A DNA stretch of 64,000 bases from Deltaproteobacteria bacterium (GCA_016210045.1 JACQUX010000009.1:65730-129729), one strand, 5' to 3'. Numbered from the stretch's first letter, positions 3,195 to 61,196 are shown. Notes: a model not told the origin generated them from the sequence alone. Program-made: numbers and translations.

Positions 3195-3255
3195 ACCCTT
3201 TCCTCACTCCCCCGCGGCCCTCTAACAGAGCCCACCCCCGCATGTCCAATACATT

Positions 3256-3318
3256 GCAGGGGGACAGGTACCGTCAACAGCCCATTTTATCGGCATCTGA
3301 CGGTACCTGTCCCCCTGC
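3256..3318. repeat. REP hairpin copy 3 (GCAGGGGGACAGGTACC...GGTACCTGTCCCCCTGC)
   Basis: Inverted repeat seen directly, about 110 bp upstream of the RAYT gene. Confidence 0.85.
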
Positions 3319-3430
3319 AATGACTATGTGATCGATTTTCGAACGGTGGGGTCGTGTGATTGAACAATGTTGTGCGTTCCGCGCGGACAATCATAGCGGG
3401 TTGGTGTGAATACTAGCTGGGATTTGCCCG

Positions 3431-4120: not shown

Positions 4121-4131
4121 ATCATCAGAGC

Positions 4132-4186
4132 GGGGACAGGTACCGTCAAATGGCCGATTGATCGGCATTTGAAGGTACCTGTCCCC
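4132..4186. repeat. REP hairpin copy 2 (inside 88-nt unit 4120-4208)
   Basis: Near-identical to copy 1 (2 mismatches); between the RAYT stop and the smc stop. Confidence 0.85.
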
Positions 4187-4198
4187 ATTCAAATGAAG

Positions 4199-36269: not shown

Positions 36270-36429
36270 ACCAGTCCCCCCTCGGCGAAGTATCCCACGG
36301 ACTGAAAAGAGCAAATGCCTTGCCAGCGGGTGGCGCAGTAAATGTGGAAAAATGTCGGCAAGTTGCCGCGGGCGGAGATGTGTAGTGTCAGCAAATGCCT
36401 GGGTCACGGGGTACTGGATGGGGCCCTTC

Positions 36430-38772: not shown

Positions 38773-38827
38773 GGGGACAGGTACCTTCGAAGGTGCGCCA
38801 AATGGGCATCGCATGGTACCTGTCCCC
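38773..38827. repeat. REP hairpin copy 4, inside the conserved leader of giant paralog A
   Basis: GGGGACAGGTACC...GGTACCTGTCCCC seen directly. Confidence 0.85.
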
Positions 38828-38904
38828 ACTGGGATGCAGTTGGGGGCGCAACTTTCTACGCGCGCTGCCGATGAACGGAGGCGAAGGGGTCCAAGGGAAC
38901 GAGC

Positions 38905-41613
38905 ATGCGGCGAGTGGGTTCACATGGGTTGGGAGTGCATCCGCGTATGGCAGCGCGACCGGGTGCGGTGCGGCAGGCGGACGCGGTGTATGACCACGCG
39001 CTGCGGACTGGGGGCACGGTCACGGAGGCGTGGCGCGCGGTGCGGGAGGGGCAGCATCAGATCTGCTTCGTCACTGCGGGGGATGACCCCGAGGCGGACG
39101 TCGCGGCAATGGCCACAGCGGGCACGAGTGCCGCACCGCTCACGTGGCCGCATCTCCTCGATGCGAGCGGGATTGGGAATGCGTTGGCCCAGTTAGCAGG
39201 GCGAGATGCGCAATCGGTGCAGCAATCGGTGCGTTTGGACTTGCGTCCGAAGCAAGACACTGCGGCCGTGTTGCGTGCGTTCCAGGTCGCCGCGACGACC
39301 AGTGCCAAAGTGGGGGATACGCGCGGAGCATGGCAGGCGGTCGTGGAATTGTACGATCATCAGCATACGCTGCTCGTGCGTTACGTCCCGGCAGCGGTGG
39401 ACCAACCGCCCCGCTTCGAATTCCCGTTGACCGCGACGACGCAGCTGGGAAAGGCGCTCCGCGACTTCGTGCGCGGACGGGCGGAGCCACTCGGCGCTGC
39501 ATACAGCGCGGAACGGATCGAGATCCTGTTGGCGGTCGAGTGCAGCGCGTTGCGCGAGCATGCGCGCCAGCAACTGCAGGAGGCCGCAACAGCAGTACTC
39601 GAACAATGCTGCGCCGCCGGATGTCAGAATGTTGTGATTCGAGACGCGACTGCAACGATGACTGCGTTGCGCGATGGTAGAATGGTTGGGCCGAGCGGAG
39701 CCCCTGTGGTTGTAGAGACGGCAGTATCTGCTGTTCCCCCGCCGACCACACCATCTGCCTCGCCGGCCTCGCTCGACCGTCAACGGATGGAAATCGCGCG
39801 TCTGCTCGATGCAAACGATCCGCCGTGGCCTGTGCCGACTCGTTTGCCCGTGCCGCTCACAGCGCGGGAACGGTGGCTCGCATACGGCGAGCCGGAGGAG
39901 TTTACCGTACCGCAAGCAGCCACGAGCGTGGCCGCAGTGGTGGGCACGATAACGGCTCGCGCGCGTACTGCCACGCGTCCGTTGAAGATCGTTTTCCCTT
40001 GTGTGTCGACGCAGGCGCTCCAGATATTATTATTAGTCAAAAGTCCGGTGCCGATCCTGATCCAGGACGGATCGAAAGTCGAGTATTGCCGATATCCGGA
40101 TCGGGGCGATGTCTTGGGCGGCATCGACGTGGCCGATATTGGAGAACATCTCCACCTGACCATTTTGGCAATCGAGGCGTTGGCTACTACAAAAACAGCT
40201 GAACTGTTGCAACTGTTCCCGCTCTCGATTACGCTGACCCCGTCGCTGCTCGCGCCGACCCGCGCGCAACAGGAGTGGGCCGAGGCGATGGTCGCACGAC
40301 TGGCGTTGGCTGGCTGGGGTCGAGTCGTGGTGCGGACGGACGCCGGCCAGGTGCTGGCGGCCGGGTATCACCCCATCGCAATGCCCGCCGCCTTCTGGCC
40401 CGAGCCTCTCTTTCAACGGGTCGACCCGGTCGATCCTGTCGTGGATGCAGGTGACGCGATCTTGGTTGACGGCGAGCGGATCGGGATCGAGGCGCTGCGT
40501 CGTCTGGTCGCTGCGCCGGCACGACCGATTGAGGTCTATTACACAGACCCTGAATTCCCTTCCGAAGTCGCAGCCATGTTCCCGGAATTGGAAGCGGCGC
40601 TGAGTGACGATGGGGATGTGTTGGTCAGCTTTTCTACCCCAGTGCGCCAAGTGGCCTTCGGGCGCTCGGCGATTATTCAACGCTACGCGACGCTGGCATG
40701 GGTGGTGCTGGATGCCGTCGGCGTGAAACTCAGTGCGCCCGAGGCGGTGCGTGTGGCGGAGTCGTGTCTCACGAATTTCGGGATCGAATCGTTGTCGGCA
40801 CGTGGGCGGGAACTCTACTTCCAAGGTGTGCGGGGTTCCGTGGCGCAGCTGCAACAACAGCGACGGGACTTTGGTTTTGCCGTTCCATCCTTTGCGGCGC
40901 TGGCCGGGGCGCTGCGCGAGGCCTATTACGCGCTTCGTTTCGGAGATGGCCGGAGCGCACGCGAACTTTCCGTAACCCTCGATTTGACGGCCGTGTCGTA
41001 TGGCTTGTTCCCGCATGTGCATCACAACGATCCGGACAAGCGCTTTCCCGCGTTTGAGCGGGCGTTGTCGAACCCACAGCCCAGCGCGGTTCCGCCAGTA
41101 GGGTTGCTCTCGTTGTTGGAACAATTCCCGCGACTCCTGCAACTGGCCGCGCGAACGTTGCAAGGCACGTGGCAGCTGCTGTTGCAGGAGGCGATTGTCG
41201 ATCCGCCGAAATACGTCCGCCGCTTTGCGGGGAGGGTCTCGCGGCGCGGGACGATCGCGCTCGACAACCCGAGTGCGGCCGACGAGGCGATCCGCATCGC
41301 GCTGCTGGCACTCGCACTGCAAGAAATTCCAAACGCCACTGCACGGCAAGTCGCGCGGGCGTATCGCGCGGTGAGCGTAATCGCAGTGCCGCAGCAGAGC
41401 ACACCCGCCGAGTTGGCCCGACCGCTCCGCGCGGCGCATCATCCGTGGCACGCGGCGTGGGCAGTGGCGCGCGCGGTGTTGACCGAACCTTCGTCATCGG
41501 GCGCCAGAGGGCTTTATCTTAGTGGAGTGCTGATCCGCGCCGATCTCGATCCAGTCACCGCCGCGTTACTGGACCAACTGCTCCCGCCGCCTGCTCTACG
41601 GCGCAAGGGGTAG
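38905..41613 (+). CDS. Giant modular protein paralog A (902 aa), uncharacterised family
   Basis: N-terminal 300 aa is about 75% identical to paralog B; shares repeated modules (xxLxxAGWxxVVVRTDAGQVLAA and PxRQVAFG) with the 1695- and 3114-aa ORFs. Confidence 0.6.
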   Translation: MRRVGSHGLGVHPRMAARPGAVRQADAVYDHALRTGGTVTEAWRAVREGQHQICFVTAGDDPEADVAAMATAGTSAAPLTWPHLLDASGIGNALAQLAGRDAQSVQQSVRLDLRPKQDTAAVLRAFQVAATTSAKVGDTRGAWQAVVELYDHQHTLLVRYVPAAVDQPPRFEFPLTATTQLGKALRDFVRGRAEPLGAAYSAERIEILLAVECSALREHARQQLQEAATAVLEQCCAAGCQNVVIRDATATMTALRDGRMVGPSGAPVVVETAVSAVPPPTTPSASPASLDRQRMEIARLLDANDPPWPVPTRLPVPLTARERWLAYGEPEEFTVPQAATSVAAVVGTITARARTATRPLKIVFPCVSTQALQILLLVKSPVPILIQDGSKVEYCRYPDRGDVLGGIDVADIGEHLHLTILAIEALATTKTAELLQLFPLSITLTPSLLAPTRAQQEWAEAMVARLALAGWGRVVVRTDAGQVLAAGYHPIAMPAAFWPEPLFQRVDPVDPVVDAGDAILVDGERIGIEALRRLVAAPARPIEVYYTDPEFPSEVAAMFPELEAALSDDGDVLVSFSTPVRQVAFGRSAIIQRYATLAWVVLDAVGVKLSAPEAVRVAESCLTNFGIESLSARGRELYFQGVRGSVAQLQQQRRDFGFAVPSFAALAGALREAYYALRFGDGRSARELSVTLDLTAVSYGLFPHVHHNDPDKRFPAFERALSNPQPSAVPPVGLLSLLEQFPRLLQLAARTLQGTWQLLLQEAIVDPPKYVRRFAGRVSRRGTIALDNPSAADEAIRIALLALALQEIPNATARQVARAYRAVSVIAVPQQSTPAELARPLRAAHHPWHAAWAVARAVLTEPSSSGARGLYLSGVLIRADLDPVTAALLDQLLPPPALRRKG

Positions 41614-41639
41614 TGTCTTCATTGATCACGGCGCACTAT

Positions 41640-41917
41640 TTACAACGACTTCAGATAGCGTCGTACGTCGTCGTGATTGCCAATGCGGTGGAGCACGGCA
41701 GTTTTGTCGTCGAGTAGTAAGATCAGCCGCAAATCGCGGCCGCAGCGGGCCTCGAAGATGCCGCTGGGTGCAATTTGCGCAATCCGAGCCCCGCGTGTTG
41801 ATGCGGCTGGCCGAAGGCGGCCGGCAGCAGCAGAATGGCGTCAAAGAGCTGTTGTCGTTGGTTCGCAGAGAGTTGGCGAACGTCTCGTTGGAATGATTCG
41901 GTGAACAGGATTTGCAT
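41640..41917 (-). pseudogene. RelE/ParE-family toxin disrupted by a single frameshift near 41745
   Basis: N-terminal MQILFTESFQRDVRQLSANQRQQLFDAIL...GLGLRKL in one frame; C-terminal GIFEARCGRDLRLILLLDDKTAVLHRIGNHDDVRRYL in the -1 frame. Confidence 0.6.
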
Positions 41918-41928
41918 ATAGAGAACGG

Positions 41929-42264
41929 CTAGCGGATTTTTTGAAGTGCGGCCGCGGCGGCCTTTGCCGAGCGGAAGGCCTTTTTGGGACCGGCCGCAGC
42001 CTCGGTCCAGAGTCGTTTGGCCTGTCCGTCGGTTAGTGCGGGCGCAACATCGAGATCTGCCTCCGTGAGCGGGCGGATCGTCGCGACGATTTTGGAATGG
42101 CGCAACAAGACGACATCTTCTCCGGCGATCGCCGCGTCGACCAACTGATTCAACTTCGCCTTGGCCTCTTGGAGCGCAGTGAAGTACTGGAGATTGGCGA
42201 CAAAGCCAGCGGCGAAGGTCGCCGCAGACTTGTATATGGTCGAAATTGTTGAATGAAATGTCAT
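41929..42264 (-). CDS. Phd/YefM-family antitoxin
   Basis: ...LNQLVDAAIAGEDVVLLRHSKIVATIRPL; immediately upstream of the RelE-like remnant. Confidence 0.65.
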   Translation of the reverse strand: MTFHSTISTIYKSAATFAAGFVANLQYFTALQEAKAKLNQLVDAAIAGEDVVLLRHSKIVATIRPLTEADLDVAPALTDGQAKRLWTEAAAGPKKAFRSAKAAAAALQKIR

Positions 42265-42337
42265 AGGCGGTCAATTGAAAGTTTGATTTTTAATTGTCAC
42301 AGTGTGACGCCCAGTCCATCTCCTCAACTCCATCCTA

Positions 42338-42394
42338 GGGGGACAGGTACCGTCAAATGTGCGCCAAATGGGCATCGCATGGTACCTGTCCCCC
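42338..42394. repeat. REP hairpin copy 5, inside the conserved leader of giant paralog B
   Basis: CCTAGGGGGACAGGTACC...GGTACCTGTCCCCCTAGG seen directly. Confidence 0.85.
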
Positions 42395-42468
42395 TAGGAT
42401 GTACTGGGAACGCAACTTTTGGCGGGTGTGGCCGATGAAGAGAGGCGAAGGGATCTCAGGGAACGAGC

Positions 42469-45400
42469 ATGCGACGCGTCGGTTCACATGGTTTGGGAGT
42501 GCATTCGCGTGTGGGAGCGCGTCCGGGCGCGGTGCGGCATGCGGATGCGGTGTATGACCACGCGCTGCGGACTGGCGGCACGGTCGCCGATGCGTGGCGC
42601 GCAGTGCGGGAGGGGCAGCATCGGATCTGCTTCGTCACTGCGGCGGGGGAGGACCCCGGGGCGGAGGCCGCTGCGCTGGCCTCTGCGGGCAGGGTCTCGG
42701 CGCCCCTCACGTGGTCGGAGTCGCTCGGCGCAACGGGGATTGGCAATGCACTGATCCAGCTCGCCGCGCGTGAACCCGATGCGGCGCAACGGCCGGTACG
42801 GCTCACGTTGCGACCGAATCCCGGCGACGTAGTGCCGGCATTTTTCCAAGCCGTGACGACGAGCGCCAAACTCGGTGACACGCGCGGGGTGTGGCAAGCG
42901 GTCGTGGAGCTGTACGATCATCAGCGTGCATTAGTGGTTCGCTACGGTCCGGCCGTTGCGGATCAACCGCGCCGCTTTGAATTCCCGCTGACCGCGACGA
43001 CGCAAGTGGCGAAGGCCTTGCGCGACTTGGTGCGCAATCGGGTGGTGCCGCTCGGCGCCGCATACGGCGCGGAACGGGTCGAGATCCATTTGGCAGTGAC
43101 GCTCGACGCGTTGCGCGAACATTCGCGGAAACAATTGACAACTGCGGCGACCGAGGCGCTCGAACGATGTCGCGCTGCCGGATGGCGCGAGGTCGTGATC
43201 CGGACGCTGCAGGAAGTCGTCGCGGCGTTACAACAGGGTGTCGTGGTTGCGAACACGGGACGTGCGCCGCATCCGAGCGGCACGGCCGTTGGGCAGGTCG
43301 ACGCTCCGGCGTCGATGCATGCGATAGTCGCGTTGATGAATCGAGCAGAGCTCGATCCCTGCTCCCTCCCGCTCCTGCCGCGTTGGGCTGTGGCACTGCC
43401 CATGGAGGGCTTCGCCCCGCCGCTGCCGGTGGAGACTCGCATCCCACGAGGCCCTTCACTGACGGCAACGGATGTGGCGCGCGAGTTGTTATCGGCCACG
43501 CCAGCCGGGGAGGGATGGACGGCTGCGCTGCTCCAGTCGACACTGCAGCAGCAGGCGCGGGATCGGCGTCGTGTCTATGCGCTGCTGCGGCCCTTCGCCG
43601 TGCCTCCGTTGCAGTTACTGGCCACGGTGGAGAGCGATGCCTCGTTCTGGTTGCTGGCGACGGACGGGATGTATCTGCGACATGTCGATGCGGCCGGACA
43701 GTTACGAGGCTATCAATATTGCACCGACGCCGACCGGGCCGCGCTCGTCGTGGAGGAATTATTGGCGATGGCTGCAGCGCCGGAATTTGAGTGTTTGCGA
43801 CAGACCCCGTTCGAATTGCAAATTGCGACCCGCGGCGTCCCCGCCGATCGGCACCTACAGCAGTGGGCGCAGTCTGTGGCCGCGTGGCTCCGCGACGCGG
43901 GCTACGAGCACGTCATCATCACGGCAGAACGAGGCCCGATTTTGGCCGCGACCGATATGCGGTTCGCAGAGGCCGCGACCGATGAGCCCGCCCTCTTGGC
44001 ATCGCCGCCGACCGATGCCGTGGAACTCGTGATGCCATCGGCCGCTGCCGCCGTGCGCGAGGCATGGGACGCGCTCCCGACGCGTCTGCCGCCGGCCGGG
44101 GCGTGCGTGATCGACGGTAGTGCGGATACCGCAGCCATGGTCTCGTTTTGGCTATTCGTACACGGGCTTTGGAGCGCCGCGAATCCGCGCCGTGGAGACG
44201 TGTTCTTGCGAGTCAACGGCCGCATCGTGGCGCACGCATTGTTCGATACGGCGAGCGGCGCGCCGTTGGGGCTGGAGATCGACGGCGCTGCCGTCACGGT
44301 AGCACAACTTCGTACGGTGTTGATCACTGACGAGGAGTTAGAGGGCGGGAAATCCCGATTGATCTTTGCCCCGCTTTTTGCGCCGGTCGAGATTCGCTAT
44401 CGCACGCCGACGCTTCCGGCCGGTGTGGCAGCCCTCTTCCCGTTGTTGGAGGAGAGCTATCATGACATGGGGTTTGCGGCGCTCGTCTTTTCCACGCCGC
44501 TGCGCCAATTCGAATTCGGCACCGCGGCCAGTATCGGACGATGGACGCATTGGCTGACCACAATGGCGGCGGCCTTCGATATCCCACTCCAACCCAACGA
44601 AGCGCGCAGCGTGGCCGAATATTTTTTGTGGCCGTTTGGCATCAAGCCGCTACTCCCGGCCGTCGCAACCATGCTCGGCGCGGATCGGGGTCGGATTTCT
44701 CGAAATGCGGAAGGCTATGGCACTCCACTGCCCGGCAGCGTCGTGGAGAGCTGCCGGCGGGCATTGGCGGAGCTGCGGCTGCTCCAAGTCGCGGCGCGGA
44801 GGCAAATTCGCGTCGTGTCGCTGGGTGGCACGGACTTGCCCGGATGGGTCGCGCAGCAAATAAAAACTGCGGAGGCGTTCGATGCCGCGCTCATGACGGC
44901 TCCTGACGACCCACGCAAATTGCCGTTTCTGCTGCTCTGGACGTTGGGCTTGATCCCCGATTCCCGATTTAGTCGACTCAGCCCGTTATTGCAAACGGTC
45001 TGGGATGCTGTGGTCAAGGGCATGGCTGATCCACGGTCGTATCTCCGCCTCTTTACCTTGATTTGGATGGTGAACACGGGAAGCGGGAAGGCAAAGGCCA
45101 AAGGTCGAAGACGGCTCGACCTGCCCGAGGCCGGACGCGTCGAGGTCATTCGCTTGCAACTGATCGCACTGGTGTTGGAGCTGGCGGACCGCGCCGTGGC
45201 CCCGGAGATCATCCGAGGACTGTATCAATCGATTCATCTGTTGCCGGTGCCGCTCGAGCTGGATAGTACGGCACCTCGTTATCCGCTCGCGTCCTCCCAG
45301 CACCCGTATGGAGAGCTCTTTACCACGCTGCAGCAAATGCTGCCGCGACTCGAACTCGCTGCGCAAGTCGCAGCGACCGTTGACACCGAGACCTTGTTGG

Positions 45401-47556
45401 CCGAGACTGATCAGCCCGCGTTGCCGGTCACGACGGCGTTGTCACTGCTTCCTACGATGGCTGCGCAGTTGTTGCACGCAGGTCTGGCGACGCCGGTCGA
45501 TGTCGGCGTCAATCGGACGCCGCTGAGCGATCGGGCCTGGCGCGCGACGGCTGCGCGCGTGCAACAGCGCTTGCGGGTCTTGGTTCCACCGACGGGCAAC
45601 GGCGCGGTCGTTACGCTGCCGTGTGCCTCGCGACAATTGTTCGCCGTGCTGGACGGACTCGATGTTTCGTACCCGCTCCTGTTGCAGATGCCAGGTGCGA
45701 TGTCGCTCCATCGTGCGGTCGATCCGGCCGGGCGGGTCAGCGGTCTCGAGTTCGTCTGCGCACTGGACGCCATCGGCATCGTGGCTCGCATGTTACTCGA
45801 ACACGCCGATATGGCGGTGCAAACGGGAGTGGCCCTGCGCGGCGTTCCAATCACGCTGACGCTGAGCACGACCCGCACGCGCCTGTCCCGTGCGCTGCAG
45901 CGGCGCATGGAAGCGGGACTGCGGCAATTACGGGACTTAGGCTTCCCGCATGTCGTCGTGCGGACCAGGGACGGCAATGTGCTTGCGGCCACGGATGCGT
46001 TGCCGGCGCCGGATGCCGTAGATGCAGAGCCGGCGGCCCATGCCCCGCCCGCCGAGCTGATTGGGATCGCGGCGGAAGGGCGCGCAGTGATTGCCGGACG
46101 TACTATGGTCACGACGTCGTTGGAACCGATCGAGGCCTGGCGCCGCGGGGACTGCGAGGCGGTGTTGTTGGACTGTACGACGGAACATGGGGCCCTCAGC
46201 GTACTCGAAGATCTGTTTGGCCAATACGAGTACCACTCCGAGCCGGTCGGTACCCCGCGCGGCGACGCCTTTATTCGCGTGGCGGGCCAGATTGTGGCCC
46301 ATGTGTCCGTGGATCCGCAACGGCGGGCGGTGCTGCGTGTGTGGTTAAATGGTGCCGTGATCGACGCGACGCGGTTGGTGTGGTGGGTTTTGCCACCCGC
46401 TGAGCAAGACAACGTGGGCGGCACAAGCCGCGGAGAAAAAATATATGCCGCCTATCCCGTGGAGATCCACATTCCGACATTGCAATTGCCGTCGCTCGTC
46501 GCAGAGGCGCTCCCTGCGTTCGAACAAGAATTTCGCGACCGACTGATTCCTGGGATCGTATTACGCACGCCGCTGGAAGAATTTGCGTTTGGGCATGCGG
46601 CCACGTTGGCCCGCTGGGCCTCGATATTCGTGGCCACGGCGGAGCCGCTGCAGATGGAATTTGACGGGGCTCTCACTCGAGACCTGTGCGTCGCGGATTG
46701 GCTGGCGCTCTACGGTGTTGGGGTATCGGGTTCTGGAGAGCTGCCATCGGCCGGGACCGATCGAGAGACGCTCCTGTATCGCCGCCACGAGCGGGGCTAT
46801 GCCCTCCCGCGGCCGGAGTTGGTCACCGATCCGCTGATAGCTTGGATTTGGGCCGAGAGTCTGCAGGGGTGGCTGCAGCGGATCGGGACGCCGGTGACGA
46901 CGGCGTCATTAGTCGATCTCGCAAGGCTGGGCGGTATCCTGACGGCCGCACAGGGGCGCAGGCGTGAAACGCCGACGCCCGAGACCGTGCGGCGCGAGCT
47001 CCCGGCGCCGCAAGCGGGCCCGGTGCCGCCACTCGGGCTGCTGCTCACGCAGGCCGGAATCGAACGGCTGCCCGCCCCGGACCCCGACCTCTTCCTGGCC
47101 GTCTGGGACGCGATGCGCGTGGGGCACCTCGACCAGCGCACGTGGGCTGCACAGTTCGTGGTCGAAGACCTCCAACAACTCACGTTCTCCGAGGCCGCAC
47201 GGCAGACCGCGCTGCGGATGCGGCTGCTCTGCTTTGTCGTGGAACATGACCAGCTGGACGAGCCGCCAGCGGAACTGCTGCGCCGTCTGTATGGCGCGAT
47301 CGCCACGCTCCCGCTCCCGGTCCGCGTGGAGGCGGGTACGATGCGTCGCCCGATGACAGACCCCGAGCATCCGTACTACGCCCCGGTCCATGCGATGCGC
47401 ACGCTGATCGCGGCATGGCGTGCGGAAGCGGCACAAGCCGCACCCGCCGCTGTGTCTCCACCGGCCGTACGCCTGTCATTGGGTGGTCTGTTGATCTGGT
47501 CGGACCTGGATCTGGAAGCGGAAGTGGTGGAGCGATTACTGCGGGAACGGGAGTGA
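42469..47556 (+). CDS. Giant modular protein paralog B (1695 aa) with internal module duplications
   Basis: Shares its N-terminus with paralog A; contains three LRDAGY-x-VVVRT-x-G-x-VLAA modules and two RQFEFG/EEFAFG modules. Confidence 0.6.
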   Translation: MRRVGSHGLGVHSRVGARPGAVRHADAVYDHALRTGGTVADAWRAVREGQHRICFVTAAGEDPGAEAAALASAGRVSAPLTWSESLGATGIGNALIQLAAREPDAAQRPVRLTLRPNPGDVVPAFFQAVTTSAKLGDTRGVWQAVVELYDHQRALVVRYGPAVADQPRRFEFPLTATTQVAKALRDLVRNRVVPLGAAYGAERVEIHLAVTLDALREHSRKQLTTAATEALERCRAAGWREVVIRTLQEVVAALQQGVVVANTGRAPHPSGTAVGQVDAPASMHAIVALMNRAELDPCSLPLLPRWAVALPMEGFAPPLPVETRIPRGPSLTATDVARELLSATPAGEGWTAALLQSTLQQQARDRRRVYALLRPFAVPPLQLLATVESDASFWLLATDGMYLRHVDAAGQLRGYQYCTDADRAALVVEELLAMAAAPEFECLRQTPFELQIATRGVPADRHLQQWAQSVAAWLRDAGYEHVIITAERGPILAATDMRFAEAATDEPALLASPPTDAVELVMPSAAAAVREAWDALPTRLPPAGACVIDGSADTAAMVSFWLFVHGLWSAANPRRGDVFLRVNGRIVAHALFDTASGAPLGLEIDGAAVTVAQLRTVLITDEELEGGKSRLIFAPLFAPVEIRYRTPTLPAGVAALFPLLEESYHDMGFAALVFSTPLRQFEFGTAASIGRWTHWLTTMAAAFDIPLQPNEARSVAEYFLWPFGIKPLLPAVATMLGADRGRISRNAEGYGTPLPGSVVESCRRALAELRLLQVAARRQIRVVSLGGTDLPGWVAQQIKTAEAFDAALMTAPDDPRKLPFLLLWTLGLIPDSRFSRLSPLLQTVWDAVVKGMADPRSYLRLFTLIWMVNTGSGKAKAKGRRRLDLPEAGRVEVIRLQLIALVLELADRAVAPEIIRGLYQSIHLLPVPLELDSTAPRYPLASSQHPYGELFTTLQQMLPRLELAAQVAATVDTETLLAETDQPALPVTTALSLLPTMAAQLLHAGLATPVDVGVNRTPLSDRAWRATAARVQQRLRVLVPPTGNGAVVTLPCASRQLFAVLDGLDVSYPLLLQMPGAMSLHRAVDPAGRVSGLEFVCALDAIGIVARMLLEHADMAVQTGVALRGVPITLTLSTTRTRLSRALQRRMEAGLRQLRDLGFPHVVVRTRDGNVLAATDALPAPDAVDAEPAAHAPPAELIGIAAEGRAVIAGRTMVTTSLEPIEAWRRGDCEAVLLDCTTEHGALSVLEDLFGQYEYHSEPVGTPRGDAFIRVAGQIVAHVSVDPQRRAVLRVWLNGAVIDATRLVWWVLPPAEQDNVGGTSRGEKIYAAYPVEIHIPTLQLPSLVAEALPAFEQEFRDRLIPGIVLRTPLEEFAFGHAATLARWASIFVATAEPLQMEFDGALTRDLCVADWLALYGVGVSGSGELPSAGTDRETLLYRRHERGYALPRPELVTDPLIAWIWAESLQGWLQRIGTPVTTASLVDLARLGGILTAAQGRRRETPTPETVRRELPAPQAGPVPPLGLLLTQAGIERLPAPDPDLFLAVWDAMRVGHLDQRTWAAQFVVEDLQQLTFSEAARQTALRMRLLCFVVEHDQLDEPPAELLRRLYGAIATLPLPVRVEAGTMRRPMTDPEHPYYAPVHAMRTLIAAWRAEAAQAAPAAVSPPAVRLSLGGLLIWSDLDLEAEVVERLLRERE

Positions 47557-47648
47557 GTGATGATTGCTGACCGACATTGCCAAAACGACATCCGATGTCA
47601 AATTGGGAAAGGCTTGTCTAAAATAACATCCGATGCTATTTTGAGCAT

Positions 47649-48866: not shown

Positions 48867-48904
48867 AGGGATCTCGAAGCATGAGCGCGTCTGTGCACCG
48901 CTTG

Positions 48905-48940
48905 CGGTCCGCATTTTTTTAGCAACCTTTCTGCAGCGGG
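48905..48940 (+). terminator. Possible intrinsic terminator (imperfect GC hairpin followed by a run of 7 T)
   Basis: CACCGCTTGCGGTCCGC then ATTTTTTT, unusual in this GC-rich DNA; the stem is weak. Confidence 0.3.
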
Positions 48941-48958
48941 CGCCGATATAAGAGCGCG

Positions 48959-51900: not shown

Positions 51901-54900
51901 TGACACCGTGTTGCCACCGCCAGCGCCTACTGCTGATGATGCCACGGCCGCGTCCACCCCCAGTCACCAGCCACTAGTCACCAGCCACCCCTCCGCAGTC
52001 ACCAGCCCCCAGCCCCCAGTCACCCCTCCGCAGCCACTTCCGCTTGTGCAAACCCTTTGGGCCCGCATCGGCGCGACGGCACGGCCGGAACTTGCGTCGT
52101 TACTGGAACGCCTCTGGGTGATGGAACAGGCACGGCCCGGCGTGCCGTCGTGGGAGATCGCGGCCGACGGGGTGTTGACCGTGGCGCAAGCCGCCCAAGC
52201 GGTGCGCGTCAGCATCGCCGCAGCGACCGCGCACGATTGTGCGATGACCGATCCCGCGAGCCTGCGCTGGTTGCTCGATGATGTGATGCCGTCGCCGGAG
52301 ATGTTCGGCGATCCGGCGACCATGGGGATGGACCAGTGGCCGACGATATGTATTACGCCGGCGGATTTTCGCGATTTGGTTGAGGCGGCTGTTAGCGCGG
52401 TCAAGGCCGTGTTGGCGGCGCCGCCGCCGGCAGATGCAGACGCGGCGCCTGGTCCCACGGCCCCCGCGCCAGATCCAACCGCGGCCGCGTCGGCCCCAAG
52501 CGCCGCGGCCTCGTCGCACTCCCACGGTTTCCAGCGCCGCGCACTGGTCCGTTATCGTCTCGGTATATTGCGGACCATTCAGCCGCCGGTCGTCGACGCG
52601 TCCGTGTTGACGGCGCTCGAACGACTGCCTCCCGATATCGCGTTCAGTCTGCTGAGTCACAACGACGCCGCCATGATGGCCGGCTTCCTGCGCGACCAAC
52701 TTCCGCGTCCCGATCGGGACGGGGTCCCGCGCCTGGTCAAGCTGTTGTGGGCGTATTTAGGCTGTTACCAAACCGGCTATGCCGCCACGTTGGCAAAATG
52801 GTGGCGGACATTTGTGGCCGAGCAGATCGCACGCGATGCCACGCTGCAAGCCCGGCTGGAACAGCTCCGAACCTACGAGGCGGCCGATACGGTCAGCTTC
52901 AACGATCTCGATCCGGAATTGTTGCACGCTGCCGTGATGGTCGGCTTCACGGTGGCTGTGACCGCGGCGTTGCATCGCACCGGCGATACCAATCTGCTCC
53001 ATATTCAGACCGCGTTGGAATCGATTCGCGACGTGAACTCCGCCCGCACCTGGGAGTCCGTGGCGGGCTTGTCGTTCGATGCGGTGCTGGCATCCGTCTC
53101 CGCGCTGGAACCGCCCGAAGAAAGCGATCGCGAGGCGTTCATCACGCTCTCCGGCGATTGGCCGCAACCGTTCCTCGTGACCGACGCCGCGCAGACGGCC
53201 CAACAGCGCCTCACTGCCAATGCCCCACGGATCAAGGCGCTGGTCGAAGCGATGGTCGCGGGCCATCCGGTGTACCACGGCGATATTCGTGCGCTTGATA
53301 TCACGAAGCCGCCCGAGGAATCGGTGGCGCCGATCCAGCGGCGTTTCAAAACGAGTGATGGGCGACAAAAAATCGGGAATCGCCATTTGACGCTGGCCGC
53401 GCTGGCGGAAATCTACTGGGACTTGGTTACCGCGCCTGGCTGTCCCGGCGCGCATCTGCCGGAGCTGTTCGAGCCGACGCTCGCGGTGAAGCTCGATTGT
53501 CTCGTGGAACACCTCTTTGATCAGATCCGGTATGGCCGCACCCGCTTTACCCGGATGAGCCGCGCGGCCTTTGCGGCCAAGGCGAAGGAGTGGGACATTA
53601 ATCGACTCCTCCCGGTGTTGCGCGGCGACAGCAATGCCGTTGCCAAGTTGCTCGGGACCAAACTCTTCTCCGATCACTGGCGGATCCTCTCGCCATTGGA
53701 ACGCAAACGGTTCGTCGAAGGGTTTGCCCAGTTGCCGCTGGCCCAAGGCCCCGGGCCGACCGGCCGGCCAGCGCGCACGCGTGTGAGCCTGCACGAATTG
53801 GCGGAACAAGAGCGGGTCTTGATCGACTTCCTGCGCGCGCGGAACCTGCGTCTACAAGGACTTGGCGGCGAGGATATTTTTCATCTCTATGAAATTTACC
53901 GTTTCGTCACCCACGTCCGTTTCGGCCGCGACTATTCCACAGCGATGCACGAGCTCGCGTATCGATTAGGCGAACGACCCGACCCGAATCCGGATCCGGC
54001 CGCACGGATCACGGCGGAGACCGATCCGGTGCTGTTGGCCGTGTTGCGCCAGGCCTACAATTATTATCAGCGCCGGGAACAATTCGGTGCGCTGCCGGCG
54101 CGACTCCGGCCCGAGACGTTGAACTTGGCCCAATGGATCGGCGCGCAGTGGTTGACGGAGCGCAGTCCGGTCCCGACCGACGATCCGCAATTCCCGATCG
54201 ATCCGCATGTGAAATTCCTGCTCGACGGCGCTCGTCTTGGCAAGACGCGCCAAATGTTCGCCGCGTGGCAACAGCTCATCGCGCGGGGCGAGGTTGAGGC
54301 CGATGGCGCCGTCCTCTATGTGACGCGTTCCACGAACATGGACGAAGTCGCGAAGGAGTTGCAACTGATCTGCAACGACGGCCAGGCCCCGTCGGTCGGG
54401 ATGTTGCGCTGGGAAGAGGGACAGAAGGGCGTTGCGGTGACGGAAGTGGCCGGCAAACAAGTCCGGATCGTGCATTATCAGAATTTGTGGCGTCTCAATC
54501 CGTACGAATGGGAACGCGAGATCGCGAAGCGGCGGGCCCGAGCCGCGAAATTGCGTGCTTCCGTGGCGGATGCTGATCCGCGAGAGGCGAAGGGCGCACG
54601 TGCGTCGCAAGAGATTGCTGAACTCGATGCGGTGATCGAGAAATTGGAAGCGCAATTGCCGGCGCTGCGCACGCAGTGGGAGCAATTGCACGCCAATGTC
54701 GCGGTCACGATCGTCGATGAGGCCCAAGAGGCCGAAAATCCTTCCGAGGAGGTCAAACAAGCCAACGGGGTGCGCGATGCGATTGCGCATGTGCGGGGTC
54801 GGCGCGCGGAGGTTGGCAAGTCGCCGATGCGGCTCTGGTGGGCCACAGCGAGTCTCTATAATAGCGATCCGGGACATATCCAATCGTTGCTCGAAACGAG

Positions 54901-57900
54901 TTTCCCGACGCATGAGTTGTATCGGCACGGCGCGGCGTTCCGGGCCGCACATACGCACACGATGGATGGACTGCTGAAACTGCACAACGACCTGATGGGC
55001 CAGTTTTCGCTGCGTCGCACCGTGGAAGAGGTCTATGAAGTCGGCGAAGAAATTCCGGCGATTCGCGAAGTGCCGTATGCAGAGCTGGGACGGTACGAAC
55101 ATAGTCGCGAACAACTGCGCATTTATCGCGCGATCTATCTCCATTTCATGGAATGGGCGCGCGCCCGCAATGCGACGCTCCCGCCCGATAAACAGATCGA
55201 TCTCGAGCAAGTCAATCCGTTGCAGATCTTCCAATTGATGGAATGGACCACGCAACATCCTGCATTGGTCGGCGGCTCGGACGATTCGCCGATGATCGCC
55301 GAGGCGGTGCGGATCGCGCGCGAGAATGCCGCGGCAGGCCGTAAAACGGTGATCGTGTGCCAATACACCGCCGTCGTCGATCAATTCCTCGCGGCCTTCG
55401 CGGCCGCCGATGTCGGCGCCGAGCGGTTCGATGGGGCCGTCGAGGGCCTGACCGACCAACGCTATCGTTTCGCCGGACGGCGGCTGGTCGCAGATCCGGC
55501 CGGGGTTCGCGTGCGAAAAGTCTCCGTCAATTTGGACCGCTTCAATAGCGATCCCACCGTTCCGGTCCTCGTCGCCAACGTGAAGAGTATCCGCGCCGGA
55601 CTGCGGGTCAATGCCGACGATATTATATTGGCGACGGAACCGATCTCGGCCACGGAACGCTATCAATTGGTCCATCGCATCCAGAACTTGAACGCCTCGG
55701 GCGAGGCGAAGAAGGACGCCGTGCGGGTGATCACGATGGTCGGTGTACATCCGCCGCGCTTCCTGGACGACCTCGAGGATCCGGCGTTGATCGCGCTCTT
55801 TGAGGCCGGCTCGCTCGGCCAACTCATTCGGGCGTACGTCCAGGACAATCAGATCGTTTGGGAGTTGATCTTGAGTGGCGAAGTGAGTCCGGAGGGGATG
55901 GAACGCTTGTTACAGAAGAAAGTGATTGCCGGCGGCGTGTTGGATCCGCTGCGGCCACATTGGGGCGTCCGTTGGGGACGCCGCGATCCGGCGGTGGACG
56001 GCGCAGCGTCCCGCAAAACGGGGAAGCACACGGCGCATCTGTCACCGGCGCTCGCGCCCCTGTTGGACATGTGCGAGAACGGCGCCCTTACGCCGCGCGA
56101 CAAAGAACGGGCGCGGCATCAAATCGCGCGGTTGGCGCGTGGATTCCAGAGTGCCGGCGTCGCGCCGCATCGTTTAGTCACCGTGATTCAGAAACTGGCG
56201 CGGCGCGGAGAACGCGGTTTTTCCTGGGCCGATCTGGATGTCGTGGTCGATCTGCTCGAAGCGAGCGATCTCTCGACGCGCGATGTCGTCTTGGCCCAGC
56301 TCCCTCGGGCCATGGAGGCGATCGCCGAAGCGGGGCTCCGCTTTGCCGAATTGGCGGAGCAGCTCCAACCTGAAGCCAGTCCGCTCGCGTTTCTCACGAT
56401 CCCGGCGCTGCTGGCGGGCCGCTTATGGCACACCGACGCGGCCGGTGCGATCGTCTATTTCCGCTTCCTGTTGCGGACGCTGGCCGCCGTGCCGGACATC
56501 GCCGCGCGTGATGCATTGGCGCAGCGTCTCTTCGTGGCGTTGGCCCGATTCAGTAGCCGACCGGAAGACTTGTACGACGACACGCTGATGCAGTTGTTTG
56601 CGCGCCCGCGACGGGAGCCGCCGCTCGGACTGTCCGAGCAAGTGGCCGCATTGGAACAGTTGGCGGTGCTGCAGGTCGTCGATCGAGAGAACTTGCCCAT
56701 GTTGCTTGCGGAAGGGAGCGGCACACTGGGCAATGTGGACGACACGCTGGAGAGTCTGCAAGCGGGCGGTGCCGGGACGTGGCAACCGCTGCTCCATGCG
56801 CTGCGTGTTGCGTCACCAGGCCCCAGACTGCTCGCGGCACTCGATGCCCTCGGCCGGCGCCCCGGACAGATTGAGGCCGTCGGCACGATGTTCCAGCGGC
56901 TCGAAGGGGCACAAGCGGGAGCCTATCGGCAACTCCTGTTGGCGACGCTGACTGAGAATCTTCCCACGTATCGTGCCGCAGCGCCCGGATTCTTGGCGGA
57001 CGCGAAATCGCGCCGGGAATTTTGGGAACCGTGGGGACAGGAACGGACCACGGCCATGCCCGACCGCGTGGTGGGTGCCCAGGAAATGGTGACGCTGCTG
57101 CAACGCGAATACGAACGGCTGATGCATCATAAGTGGGGCTTAAGTCTCGAGCTGTTTGCCGCGTTGGAAGAACCATGGGTGGCCGAGGCATGGACACAAT
57201 ATCGGGACACTGAAGATCGCGAAGCGCGCGCGGCGCAGCACCACGCGGTGCAAGCGGATGTGGCACGCCTCAGCGGGCTCCGTTCCCAAGTCGAGGCGTT
57301 TTTCCAACCTCGTCGCCGCCGCCGCGCGAGCGACCCGGAAGTGCCCGCGATTGAGCTCTCCGCGGACGACCTGGCCTGTTTAGCAAGATATAGTGTGACA
57401 CCGCCCGACCTGGTGAATGCCGAAGCCGTGCTGGTCTACGGTCAACAACTGACGACTTGGGCCGGCCGCTTGCAGCGCGTCGCCGACTGGATGGAATTGA
57501 GCCGCACGTTGCATCAGATTTTCCACGACGATGCGGACGCCGATCCCGCGGCCGCGTTGGCGGCCGTGCAGCGGCAGATTTGGGCATTGGAAGACCGTCG
57601 CGAAGATGGACAGGGTTCACTACTCGCGGATCGCGTGCTCGATCAGTTGCATCAGCTCCGCCGCCAACTGCAGGCGTTGATCCAGTGCGCGGCGCAGGAA
57701 AAAGCGTCGACCGCATTTGCCGACGTCTCAGTGACCGACACCGATGACATAGCCGTGCTCCATCTCTTCACGCATAGCAATGCAGACTTGGTCCCGCGCT
57801 TCCGTCGCGGTGCGCGCGAGCATCTCGACACGTTGCTCGACGTGGCCGGCAGCCGCAATCGGCGCTGGGTCGTGGTCCGCAGCCACGGTCGACCAATAGC

Positions 57901-58303
57901 CGTTGCCGTGGCGTCGGTGGAAAAGAATCAGCCTGGACGCCCGCATATCCACCTCGAATGGGCCTGGTTTGCTGGCGGCTATGACTTCCGCAACGAAATG
58001 CTGGCGCATCTCCAAGCAAAAATCGCCGATCGCGAGAACGTTGCGGCACAGGGCGGAACTCCGCAGCCGATGCAATACGGACGCGAGGGGCCGGGGAAAA
58101 AGACGCCGTTGCTGACGCAGCCGCTACCGTTTTCGCCGTTGGAGGTGAGCCGGATCCCGAGCCAAGATCGTGTCACGCTGTCGTCGACCGGCAGCACGGT
58201 CGGCGACAACACCGTCGAGGCCTTCTCGCGAATCAATCCTCAAGGGACGGAAAAACACGACGCCGTGATCCTGCGTAGAGTTGTCTCCGCGTCCGGTTCT
58301 TGA
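48959..58303 (+). CDS. Giant modular protein C (3114 aa) containing a complete SNF2-family ATPase core (about 54200-55700) plus modules shared with paralogs A and B; start uncertain
   Basis: Motif I FLLDGARLGKTRQ; II TIVDEAQEAENPSE; III WWATASLYNSDPGHIQSLL; IV KTVIVCQYTAVVDQF...ERFDGAV; V/VI VLVANVKSIRAGLRVNADDIILATEPISATERYQLVHRIQN; shared QQWVTRAVARLRDAGYAQVVVRTASGAVLAASD and RYEFG modules. Confidence 0.65.
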   Translation: MTRPIGKGPGLGGALPPGLTRGLARTPTPLRGPLGSGIGGRQPLGAGIGTGSGRGERSPLSSHGDGPFGMPSRAYRFLLPGAHHFSAHHLAIECASGRKGPPDGSVGSGSGSSSDAPQVTREPSLRHGKAIKAGGIVAALNALADQDASRTRAVIVRLKPQALSGPEQWAVLLAELGRAVWHGTVTILDAENHPIVRRAARPDARPAPFIFALHREKTHAAQWERLCAILMDPAVVRAVGATPIVLQYGFVLESADDAMHAHARDAVGTLVSSGYVQVTAANAEGATLLRVQPWMIYAQPVPLAVAAPERHRYPEAVGRVLRSEEDDGSAESPLPDQPHRVLDERGAREYEVAQVRALLEPIDPAVPVELTCPRSSQHLYPPAPFLGMRRQAAVTLDARESPNGFGVHRMVLHFDPAHEGELVRADVTVAFDELLEQSEHLKLSHLDPSARTYHSLAVGAPPVPVVIKIVSRPSLSLQAVWSAAQLYCRRARQARMSDVTIVYGDRVITGTIPGRIWRSGVPQLPAVAAAAPSTDSADVAATAAAEHVPPVAASEGLSADADAEPQSGDGASLLPPPPPPLPPDDGGPASQPEPPRGTPEVPRAVPVTTAIPQPPLRTAVIAQRGMPDPITMPEAVQEGGLAAVVVWLQVQTVRPQGVITMWARRTDANLALLAATADRGMPVTLIDPITAGYFHHEPSIGFDVEVNPDRLGHVVRALCAAADGDFAPLRTDPLMLTLARVDDLPEAALQQWVTRAVARLRDAGYAQVVVRTASGAVLAASDAITAVIPESSDDPWTTNGDATDSTTLQTMIDGDLRSSLPGTRLIQFHGTTVPEWLRARFAAYETAFDVAGSQRGLLIETDTERYEFGCSERLRLWTYQVQAVAQRHGRTLTKAEAELVAEVLLARYCIVPQSPAAVAAANHYRTSPLDAAAMQSFRAEAFHFATPHVVMATPVILRLTADLVPAVATQDAAAEPAPPTPDTVLPPPAPTADDATAASTPSHQPLVTSHPSAVTSPQPPVTPPQPLPLVQTLWARIGATARPELASLLERLWVMEQARPGVPSWEIAADGVLTVAQAAQAVRVSIAAATAHDCAMTDPASLRWLLDDVMPSPEMFGDPATMGMDQWPTICITPADFRDLVEAAVSAVKAVLAAPPPADADAAPGPTAPAPDPTAAASAPSAAASSHSHGFQRRALVRYRLGILRTIQPPVVDASVLTALERLPPDIAFSLLSHNDAAMMAGFLRDQLPRPDRDGVPRLVKLLWAYLGCYQTGYAATLAKWWRTFVAEQIARDATLQARLEQLRTYEAADTVSFNDLDPELLHAAVMVGFTVAVTAALHRTGDTNLLHIQTALESIRDVNSARTWESVAGLSFDAVLASVSALEPPEESDREAFITLSGDWPQPFLVTDAAQTAQQRLTANAPRIKALVEAMVAGHPVYHGDIRALDITKPPEESVAPIQRRFKTSDGRQKIGNRHLTLAALAEIYWDLVTAPGCPGAHLPELFEPTLAVKLDCLVEHLFDQIRYGRTRFTRMSRAAFAAKAKEWDINRLLPVLRGDSNAVAKLLGTKLFSDHWRILSPLERKRFVEGFAQLPLAQGPGPTGRPARTRVSLHELAEQERVLIDFLRARNLRLQGLGGEDIFHLYEIYRFVTHVRFGRDYSTAMHELAYRLGERPDPNPDPAARITAETDPVLLAVLRQAYNYYQRREQFGALPARLRPETLNLAQWIGAQWLTERSPVPTDDPQFPIDPHVKFLLDGARLGKTRQMFAAWQQLIARGEVEADGAVLYVTRSTNMDEVAKELQLICNDGQAPSVGMLRWEEGQKGVAVTEVAGKQVRIVHYQNLWRLNPYEWEREIAKRRARAAKLRASVADADPREAKGARASQEIAELDAVIEKLEAQLPALRTQWEQLHANVAVTIVDEAQEAENPSEEVKQANGVRDAIAHVRGRRAEVGKSPMRLWWATASLYNSDPGHIQSLLETSFPTHELYRHGAAFRAAHTHTMDGLLKLHNDLMGQFSLRRTVEEVYEVGEEIPAIREVPYAELGRYEHSREQLRIYRAIYLHFMEWARARNATLPPDKQIDLEQVNPLQIFQLMEWTTQHPALVGGSDDSPMIAEAVRIARENAAAGRKTVIVCQYTAVVDQFLAAFAAADVGAERFDGAVEGLTDQRYRFAGRRLVADPAGVRVRKVSVNLDRFNSDPTVPVLVANVKSIRAGLRVNADDIILATEPISATERYQLVHRIQNLNASGEAKKDAVRVITMVGVHPPRFLDDLEDPALIALFEAGSLGQLIRAYVQDNQIVWELILSGEVSPEGMERLLQKKVIAGGVLDPLRPHWGVRWGRRDPAVDGAASRKTGKHTAHLSPALAPLLDMCENGALTPRDKERARHQIARLARGFQSAGVAPHRLVTVIQKLARRGERGFSWADLDVVVDLLEASDLSTRDVVLAQLPRAMEAIAEAGLRFAELAEQLQPEASPLAFLTIPALLAGRLWHTDAAGAIVYFRFLLRTLAAVPDIAARDALAQRLFVALARFSSRPEDLYDDTLMQLFARPRREPPLGLSEQVAALEQLAVLQVVDRENLPMLLAEGSGTLGNVDDTLESLQAGGAGTWQPLLHALRVASPGPRLLAALDALGRRPGQIEAVGTMFQRLEGAQAGAYRQLLLATLTENLPTYRAAAPGFLADAKSRREFWEPWGQERTTAMPDRVVGAQEMVTLLQREYERLMHHKWGLSLELFAALEEPWVAEAWTQYRDTEDREARAAQHHAVQADVARLSGLRSQVEAFFQPRRRRRASDPEVPAIELSADDLACLARYSVTPPDLVNAEAVLVYGQQLTTWAGRLQRVADWMELSRTLHQIFHDDADADPAAALAAVQRQIWALEDRREDGQGSLLADRVLDQLHQLRRQLQALIQCAAQEKASTAFADVSVTDTDDIAVLHLFTHSNADLVPRFRRGAREHLDTLLDVAGSRNRRWVVVRSHGRPIAVAVASVEKNQPGRPHIHLEWAWFAGGYDFRNEMLAHLQAKIADRENVAAQGGTPQPMQYGREGPGKKTPLLTQPLPFSPLEVSRIPSQDRVTLSSTGSTVGDNTVEAFSRINPQGTEKHDAVILRRVVSASGS

Positions 58304-58319
58304 TAGGGCGTGTGTCATC

Positions 58320-58988
58320 ATGCAATCGCTCTCCATTTCCATCATCTTGTTGCTTACGTTGTGCGGCATACGCATCGCCCACGCCGTTTCCTGCCCCGGC
58401 GCGTGTGGAGTGCTGCAGCGGCAGCTCGGAGCGACGGCCGTCGTGACGCCGGAACACGTGCGTCCATTGCGGGAGTGGTTGGGGCGCGCGGTGGTGCAGG
58501 CGCACGGCGCGCAACAATTACGAGCGAGCGGGACATTGCTGGCGCGGGGCTATGCGCAGTTGATGGCGGGCGCGGTGGGCGAGGGCATCCAAACATTATT
58601 GCGCGCGGCGGAACCCCACGCCTCGCATGCGGCGCTGGATGGCGCGTATCTGGGTGTCTTAATCTTGTGGCCGGAATTGACGCCGACCCAGCAAGTGGAT
58701 TGGGCGCGCGACCTGGCCGGCCGCTACGCGTTAGTGGCCGTGGGGGAGCGGCCGCAGCCGAACGGCGCGCCCCCGATACGTCTCCGCCCGCTGGATCTGC
58801 AGCGCCTGATTTGGCTCTACACCTCCGCCCAAGAACCGCGCGCGGTCCAACACTTTACTCAGCTGGGGCAGCGCTGGTTCCCGGAGGATCCCGCCTTTGC
58901 CCGGCAGGCGACGCCGTCGCCGCGTGTCGTGGCCGAACGTCCTACACCGCAAGCAACCGCACCCCACCGCGACCGGCGGGATTGGTAG
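58320..58988 (+). CDS. Hypothetical secreted protein (start set at MQSLSISIILLLTLCGIRIAHA)
   Basis: Signal peptide; last gene of the + strand block. Confidence 0.45.
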   Translation: MQSLSISIILLLTLCGIRIAHAVSCPGACGVLQRQLGATAVVTPEHVRPLREWLGRAVVQAHGAQQLRASGTLLARGYAQLMAGAVGEGIQTLLRAAEPHASHAALDGAYLGVLILWPELTPTQQVDWARDLAGRYALVAVGERPQPNGAPPIRLRPLDLQRLIWLYTSAQEPRAVQHFTQLGQRWFPEDPAFARQATPSPRVVAERPTPQATAPHRDRRDW

Positions 58989-61133: not shown

Positions 61134-61196
61134 GCAGGGGGACAGGTACCGTCGGATATAGGAAATATGCGGATTTGTCGGTACCTGTCCCCCTGC
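61134..61196. repeat. REP hairpin copy 6, immediately upstream of birA
   Basis: GCAGGGGGACAGGTACC...GGTACCTGTCCCCCTGC seen directly. Confidence 0.85.

Follow-up and report, generated by a model that had tools for sequence, protein, structure and literature searches.

Phages and conjugative elements encode polyvalent proteins, such as P1 DarB: giant polypeptides in which an SNF2-type ATPase is commonly found alongside many uncharacterised, lineage-specific domains (PMC5512222). We analysed a 64,000-nucleotide stretch of DNA (hereafter, the window) from the metagenome-assembled genome (MAG) named 'Deltaproteobacteria bacterium' at NCBI (GCA_016210045.1, JACQUX010000009.1:65730-129729, from a 265-kb contig), which contains a locus of three giant genes, A (HY696_02450), B and C, and a gene for a small protein, S. 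Together with an AAA+ ATPase gene located between B and C, these genes had been put forward, from the sequence alone, as a candidate five-gene system for phage defence or DNA transactions (the original prediction). Comparison of the locus with its relatives suggests that A, B and C represent a lineage-restricted family of large cytoplasmic modular proteins, with an SNF2-like motor likely present in C, and that the ATPase gene was inserted next to them. The reading that we tentatively prefer, although we give it somewhat less than an even chance, is that C is a translocase with a conflict-related role.

Modules and distribution of the giant proteins

Alignment with BLASTP shows that the three giants are paralogues, as had been proposed: A aligns to residues 1-998 of B (E = 1e-132), residues 977-1695 of B form a second copy of the unit found in residues 300-900 of A, and residues 47-374 and 540-947 of C match, respectively, the N-terminal domain (N-domain) and the unit. 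With a hidden Markov model (HMM) of the unit, which is approximately 600-700 aa long, we identified two copies in B and a single copy in each of A and C. Each unit consists of an alpha/beta module (M1), the 'TP..Q..FG' or 'EFG' module (M2) and a helical domain. By hhalign, the N-domain is homologous to M1, which forms the first half of each unit (probability 92%, E = 7e-7), and the copies of the alpha/beta module therefore number two in A, three in B and two in C, compared to one, two and one copies of M2; the predicted counts of 2+1 for A and 3+2 for B were thus recovered by the unit HMM and hhalign. Residues 330-590 of C and the entire sequence past residue 1230 are unrelated to the modules. 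When compared by hhalign as possible further copies of a module, neither this insert (residues 330-590) nor the 'VVVRSHGRPIAVAVA' segment in the C-terminal part of C qualified, and no further paralogue of A, B or C was found in the window. Imperfect 14/21-nt tandem repeats at positions 51958-52041 (CCAGTCACCAGCC...) encode a Pro/Ser/Thr/Gln-rich linker at residues ~1000-1030 of C. Most invariant positions of the modules are occupied by Leu, Pro, Ala, Gly or Thr, and none has the look of a conserved catalytic residue; the modules are probably binding or oligomerization platforms.

The family appears to be exceedingly rare. An exhaustive HMMER search of 1.84 billion representative proteins, using a profile built from A, the two halves of B and the N-terminus of C, recovered only six clusters: A, B and C, P0005 (2282 aa, three units), P0006 (a fragment, contig L086) and P0007, a distant A-like homologue of 887 aa encoded at positions 1723-4386 of an 11.6-kb contig (L003). 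P0006 and P0007 belong to a lineage with 49-50% GC (49% for the P0007 contig). The neighbours of the P0007 gene encode a Peptidase_M50 (RseP-like) protein, an XerC/D-like recombinase, a TrmB-like protein and GTP cyclohydrolase I (FolE), and the P0007 gene converges on the recombinase gene with a 4-nt overlap. In word-indexed homologue searches, A retrieved only itself, and both C and its core retrieved only C and P0003 (64% identical). No relatives of the C core were detected in GTDB genomes, JGI metagenomes or IMG/VR, and none of the N-domain in JGI metagenomes, the sole collection tried with this domain; BLAST against phages and plasmids, including tblastn with the motor region, likewise found nothing. 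There was no match for any module, or for any of 12 family members, in Pfam, NCBIfam, PADLOC or PDB sequences (the latter searched with C, B, a helicase profile and a family profile). Across the family libraries (Pfam, NCBIfam, PADLOC and PHROGs), the five proteins, the segments of C and the 12 family members yielded only AAA_14/PDC-S01 in the ATPase and phrog_62 in C.

In an AF2 model of A, obtained from a 10-sequence alignment (mean pLDDT 66, and 75-85 in the domains), three alpha/beta domains are followed by an all-helical domain. Fold searches with this whole-chain, medium-confidence model gave no significant match (best E = 0.01 with Foldseek against PDB, and best E = 0.02 against BFVD). 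The original claim that the modules fit no described family was therefore upheld by the sequence libraries as well as by the PDB and BFVD fold searches.

This orphan status is due in part to undersampling of the host lineage. The tryptophanyl-tRNA synthetase (TrpRS) encoded next to the cluster (36430-37446, minus strand) shares no more than 61-63% identity with its counterparts in the 185,579 GTDB species representatives, with the best matches found in a groundwater 'Deltaproteobacteria' MAG and in Oligoflexales/Oligoflexia MAGs; the host is an undersampled groundwater lineage related to Oligoflexia. The source MAG itself is apparently missing from the GTDB species-representative collection.

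The probable SNF2-like core of C and selection along the protein

The catalytic motifs of SNF2 proteins comprise a Walker A motif (GxGKT), a DExx motif II, motif III and a motif VI with two arginines. Residues 1753-2241 of C match phrog_62 ('DNA helicase'), a phage family profile of 1881 positions, over both lobes (E = 5.4e-16, profile positions 713-1094), and the same profile is matched by E. coli RapA, the canonical bacterial SNF2 protein (E = 9.5e-45, positions 674-878). Judged against the SNF2 consensus, the following can be read in C: motif I (LGKT, residues 1760-1763), motif II (DEAQ, 1920-1923), motif III (ATAS, 1962-1965), inter-lobe 'LRR' and 'HP' blocks, and motifs V-VI (RAGLRVN...QLVHRIQNLN, 2212-2245, with motif VI, QLVHRIQNLN, at 2236-2245); a coiled-coil insert of about 60 aa precedes motif II. 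The GKT, DEAQ and ATAS motifs and the SNF2-type blocks are kept in P0003, in the SNF2 order. Taken together, the profile match and the motifs indicate that C likely holds an SNF2-like motor. The full SNF2 core that had been ascribed to C is thus supported by phrog_62, the only profile that recognises the motor, and by the motif reading, but not by Pfam, NCBIfam, PADLOC or PDB sequences; in particular, NCBIfam and PADLOC detected no SNF2 domain in C.

Comparison of C with its homologue in a second genome (see below) shows that the core and the SNF2-like region, with a ratio of nonsynonymous to synonymous substitution rates (dN/dS) of 0.14-0.15, are subject to purifying selection and are constrained like the neighbouring TerC (0.13). 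The modular N-terminal 1200 aa of C evolve about twice as fast (dN/dS = 0.27), and identity between the two C proteins is ~50% across the modules but reaches 75-91% over residues 1200-2300. Divergence is also pronounced in B, which is only 36% identical between genomes in which TerC is 85% identical, and the number of units varies from 1 to 3 among relatives.

Conserved genes and insertions

The second genome is represented by a Logan contig from another sample (L002) that starts inside the B homologue and contains full-length homologues of C and S. The gene order is the B homologue, 58 nt, the C homologue, the S homologue and, on the opposite strand, TerC, with identities to the window of 36% for B, 64% for C, 59% for S and 85% for TerC. 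In this only syntenic relative, no ATPase gene is present between B and C. Although the C proteins share 64% identity, the two genomes have the same sequence, CATTTTTTTAGCAACCTTT, ~30 nt before C starts (48913-48931 in the window, 5133-5151 in L002); it may be a promoter or regulatory element. From the absence of the ATPase gene in L002 and the retention of CATTTTTTTAGCAACCTTT upstream of C in both genomes, it follows that the ATPase gene has been inserted, upstream of this conserved sequence of roughly 20 nt: by this comparison, the AAA_14/DUF4143 gene appears as an insertion between B and C that lies outside the conserved set, which in the two genomes comprises B, C and S plus the neighbouring TerC. 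The expected synteny of two giants, a DUF4143 gene and an SNF2 giant was accordingly not observed, and the inclusion of the ATPase in a five-gene system is contradicted both by its apparent insertion and by its family. The ATPase matches PADLOC model PDC-S01 (PDLC04790, E = 4.8e-49), described as a widespread, stand-alone single-gene defence candidate in a series of which most members are so far without experimental validation (PMC12988326). Its assignment as a DUF4143 AAA+ ATPase holds, with matches to AAA_14 (E = 2.1e-20) and, below threshold, to DUF4143 (E = 0.0032). The PADLOC check suggested along with the original prediction thus returned a model for the inserted ATPase and nothing for A, B, C or S.

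All five open reading frames (ORFs) of the proposed system are on the plus strand, as described, but the run is interrupted between A and B by a minus-strand gene for a Phd/YefM-like antitoxin and a RelE/ParE/YafQ-like toxin pseudogene, a pair that had been placed upstream of the cluster. After repair of the frameshift, the toxin matches YafQ_toxin (E = 0.0019) and ParE_toxin (E = 0.015), both below the Pfam thresholds. The same frameshift is present in a Logan contig assembled independently, L001, whose sequence is identical to window positions 38799-42116; the toxin gene is therefore probably a real pseudogene. The toxin-antitoxin pair likewise appears to be an independent, partly decayed insertion, and we regard it and the AAA_14/DUF4143 gene as putative insertions unrelated to the giants.

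Giants A and B had been said to share an almost identical 300-aa N-terminus. We found that their first ~250 aa are 58-88% identical (~69% on average), with an abrupt drop to ~28% beyond. At the DNA level, the shared segment (38841-39588 vs. 42405-43149) is 76-87% identical and covers the upstream sequence and the first ~700 coding nucleotides; the whole duplicated 5' region, including a REP-like palindrome, is 76-95% identical, with a spacing of ~3564 nt. Giant A, as judged from these alignments, is a mosaic in which the promoter-proximal part of B is joined to an anciently diverged unit, a pattern that points to partial duplication or gene conversion and amounts to a constant head with a variable body. 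The palindrome is a genome-wide repeat and not specific to the cluster, with six intergenic copies in the window compared to 0.01 expected by chance; it is one of these copies, and not a gene, that occupies position 38773, which had been taken as the start of the cluster.

The three giant ORFs were found at the predicted positions and lengths (Table 1). The NCBI annotation places the starts of A and B 14 codons later (888 and 1681 aa). The start of S lies 16 nt past the stop codon of C; S contains an N-terminal signal-peptide-like segment and has no match in Pfam, PHROG or PADLOC, whereas no signal peptide is visible, by reading, in A, B or C. Pfam searches of the neighbouring genes identified TrpRS upstream of the cluster, TerC and LipB downstream, and also an ABC transporter and an SPFH protein. 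Rfam had no match in the 36-62 kb region, and a scan for promoters and terminators gave counts not above the shuffled expectation.

Further from the cluster, positions 16776-23201 (plus strand) encode a 2141-aa bacterial alpha-2-macroglobulin with MG2, A2M, a bait region, bMG3/6/10 and Big_5, which is unrelated to the giants. It is followed at 23275-24618 (plus strand), ~14 kb upstream of the cluster, by a gene for a Schlafen/AlbA_2 + HATPase_c_4 protein; this architecture is frequent in defence islands. A 338-aa ORF at 35454-36470 (minus strand) has no Pfam match, and its C-terminal ~80 aa match PHROG Hoc-like/tail-fibre families (E = 7e-6), suggesting an Ig-like domain.

Table 1. Coordinates of the locus in the window and domain layout of the giants (aa, residues of the respective protein)
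Feature	Position	Strand	Remarks
Giant A	38905-41613	+	902 aa by longest ORF
Layout of A			disordered, aa 1-76; N-domain, 77-250; M1, 306-489; M2, 509-637; helical domain, 640-894
RelE/ParE/YafQ-like toxin pseudogene	41641-41917	-	between A and B; +1/-1 frameshift needed to read
Phd/YefM-like antitoxin	41929-42264	-	PhdYeFM_antitox E = 2.4e-4, below gathering score
Giant B	42469-47556	+	1695 aa by longest ORF
Layout of B			N-domain, aa 78-248; unit 1, 294-982; unit 2, 975-1695
AAA_14/DUF4143 ATPase	47649-48866	+	405 aa
Giant C	48959-58303	+	3114 aa; locus tag HY696_02475
Layout of C, N-terminal part			Gly/Pro-rich N-terminus; N-domain, aa 123-288; insert, 330-590; unit, 588-1227
Layout of C, remainder			conserved core, aa 1230-1740; putative SNF2-like ATPase, 1753-2241; mostly helical C-terminal region, 2330-3114
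Putative SNF2-like ATPase core of C	54215-55681	+	aa 1753-2241
Small ORF S	58281-58988	+	likely ATG at 58320, giving 58320-58988
REP-like palindrome upstream of A	38773-38827		GGGGACAGGTACC-N29-GGTACCTGTCCCC
REP-like palindrome upstream of B	42339-42393		95% identical to the copy at 38773-38827
Other REP-like copies	863-917, 3260-3314, 4132-4186, 61138-61192		

Interpretation and comparison with known systems

A member of the family consists of a disordered N-terminus and an alpha/beta N-domain followed by one to three tandem units. C would be the enzymatic member, in which ~1900 strongly constrained residues past the modules include a very divergent Swi2/Snf2-type ATPase, and it may act as an ATP-driven translocase on double-stranded DNA or nucleoprotein, as could be expected from the established biochemistry of SNF2 proteins (summarised in PMC5512222). 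A and B are motor-less paralogues of C. The fast-evolving modules shared by the three proteins would serve as non-catalytic platforms for binding or oligomerization, that is, in a scaffold role, and through them A, B and C might assemble together or recognise a variable target. We tilt the presumed role towards genetic conflict, as opposed to housekeeping, because of the fast divergence of the modules, the varying number of units (1-3) and the insertions of defence-type genes, whereas the housekeeping genes around the locus, the strong purifying selection on the core and the context of P0007 lean towards housekeeping; a defence role of the giants is put forward as a hypothesis. In the most far-reaching form of this idea, B, C and S, joined by A as a mosaic paralogue of recent origin, would be an unprecedented conflict system: one very large complex that senses foreign DNA and remodels or excludes it, with fast-evolving recognition modules of new fold common to the motor-less giants and the SNF2 giant, and a secreted partner as the link to the envelope. 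This elaboration we consider unlikely.

Several observations weigh against a conflict-related translocase. The second arginine of motif VI is replaced by Asn in C and by Ser in P0003 (the first is kept), which makes the catalytic competence of C uncertain. The Pfam models SNF2-rel_dom and Helicase_C miss the core of C even at E ≤ 10 on isolated segments, PDB sequence searches with the single sequence and with a profile miss it as well, and alignment of the helicase region to RapA gives an hhalign probability of 0.1% and no BLAST signal. The AF2 model of residues 1201-2400 of C, from a 2-sequence alignment, is unusable (pLDDT 36). No PADLOC-DB family matches A, B, C or S at E ≤ 0.1, and searches with the giants and S revealed no effector domain such as a nuclease or a methylase. 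The synteny comes from a single relative whose contig begins inside B, and the locus lies among housekeeping genes (TrpRS, TerC and LipB); P0007, too, is found in a housekeeping context, with no SNF2 giant on its 11.6-kb contig. Finally, the co-conserved, apparently secreted S is not explained by a model centred on a DNA motor, although a housekeeping remodeller accounts for it no better.

The alternative to which we attach the most weight, although it is itself doubtful, is that the giants are a lineage-specific housekeeping machine without any conflict role, C being a RapA-like remodeller of transcription or of the nucleoid and A and B its scaffold paralogues. This would fit the match of RapA and C to the same PHROG profile, the dN/dS of the C core (0.15 vs. 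0.13 for TerC), the adjacency of TerC in both genomes, the neighbouring TrpRS and LipB genes, and the location of P0007 amid RseP-like, XerC/D-like, TrmB-like and FolE genes. It is harder to reconcile with a B protein that is 36% identical where TerC is 85% identical, with unit numbers between 1 and 3 among relatives, with the mosaic and apparently homogenised N-termini of A and B, and with the near absence of the family from 1.84 billion representative proteins, since a core function would be expected to be wider in the lineage. Because the motor is recognised only by a phage family, because polyvalent proteins commonly pair SWI2/SNF2 ATPases with many uncharacterised domains (PMC5512222), and because toxin-antitoxin and PDC-S01 insertions are near, we also considered whether the giants derive from a DarB-like polyvalent protein of a mobile element, equipped with an SNF2 module and since domesticated or in decay. 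We judge this improbable: the flanks contain no integrase, conjugation or phage structural genes; Pfam finds none of the hub domains of polyvalent proteins (MPTase, adenine methyltransferase, ArdC-N, DdrB-ParB, ART and LPDs) in the 12 family members and the segments of C; neither tblastn searches of phages and plasmids with the motor region nor scans of IMG/VR gave a match; the place beside TerC is kept in two genomes; and the C core is under strong purifying selection.

A role outside the cytoplasm can be imagined for giant, repetitive, fast-evolving proteins with Pro/Ala-rich linkers, particularly as the co-conserved S has a signal-peptide-like segment and the nearest TrpRS relatives are from Oligoflexales/Oligoflexia MAGs: the giants could be effectors, secreted or at the surface, that an Oligoflexia/Bdellovibrio-like bacterium uses, for example, in predation or adhesion, and S could assist them in the periplasm. 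However, A, B and C carry no signal peptide, known secretion motif, or Ig, cadherin, RTX or beta-helix repeats, no secretion-system genes were found nearby, and an internal SNF2-type ATPase would be a cytoplasmic motor directed at nucleic acids, so that we hold this explanation to be quite improbable. Less probable again, and largely refuted by L002, is the five-gene system itself, in which all five proteins would act jointly in phage defence or DNA transactions. Its appeal lay in the combination of an SNF2-like motor, fast-evolving giants, nearby toxin-antitoxin and REP elements and an AAA+ gene that matches PDC-S01 (E = 4.8e-49). Yet that gene is missing in the sole syntenic relative, where the sequence 5' of C is kept, and PDC-S01 is described as a stand-alone single gene (PMC12988326); the toxin-antitoxin pair is on the opposite strand, with the toxin frameshifted; PADLOC returns nothing for A, B, C or S; and Pfam on all neighbours found no methyltransferase, PLD or MotAB-like partner, in agreement with what the original prediction had noted of these partners. 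The chance that the long ORFs are spurious or an artefact of assembly is negligible. The genome has 62-64% GC, and long ORFs occur in many frames; however, A recurs in the independent assembly L001, a second sample contributes homologues of B, C and S, both genomes keep the start of C along with the motif that precedes it, and the dN/dS of 0.14-0.27 between C and its homologue is that of a real coding sequence. A collapsed repeat, named at the outset as a possible source of error, is ruled out by L001, by the second genome and by the fact that the DNA of A and B is only 76-87% identical.

If the modules truly are new folds, they would represent at least three new domain families (N-domain/M1, M2 and the helical domain), and the motor of C would be among the most divergent SNF2-type motors known, visible only via a phage profile. 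The constant head, the variable arrays of units and the presence of a motor in one paralogue are suggestive of a machine for modular recognition, and possibly of a new principle of defence or of nucleoid remodelling. The family is known only from about five metagenomic contigs of uncultured bacteria, from an undersampled lineage, which limits its practical impact for now. The comparison also has corrective value, in that the 'system' of an SNF2 and an AAA+ ATPase is a juxtaposition produced by insertion.

Compared to Swi2/Snf2 ATPases such as RapA/HepA and SsoRad54-like proteins, C shares the phrog_62 match and the order of the motifs, but differs in that its core escapes the curated Pfam and PDB comparisons and hhalign against RapA, in the coiled-coil insert, in the missing second arginine of motif VI, and in its size, with ~2500 of its 3114 aa outside the core matching nothing; its placement in the SNF2 family is thus suggested by one profile and the motifs, and not by curated models. 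The helicases of described defence systems (DrmD of DISARM, ZorD of Zorya, and those of BREX and Hachiman) resemble C as SF2/SNF2-type motors located beside defence-type genes. Unlike these systems, A, B, C and S match no PADLOC model, no methyltransferase or PLD partner (as in DISARM), ZorAB partner (as in Zorya) or nuclease partner was found at the locus, and the genes of defence type beside the giants either are insertions that the relative does not have or have decayed. Likeness to PDC-S01 (AAA_14 + DUF4143) applies to the inserted 405-aa ATPase only and not to the giants. Polyvalent proteins differ from the giants in that the A/B/C locus resides on the chromosome and keeps its place beside TerC in two genomes, and that two of the paralogues, A and B, are without a motor. 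Nevertheless, they are likewise giant, multidomain and fast-evolving, are conflict-associated and carry an SNF2-type ATPase, and, by this comparison, they are the closest described concept for the giants (PMC5512222).

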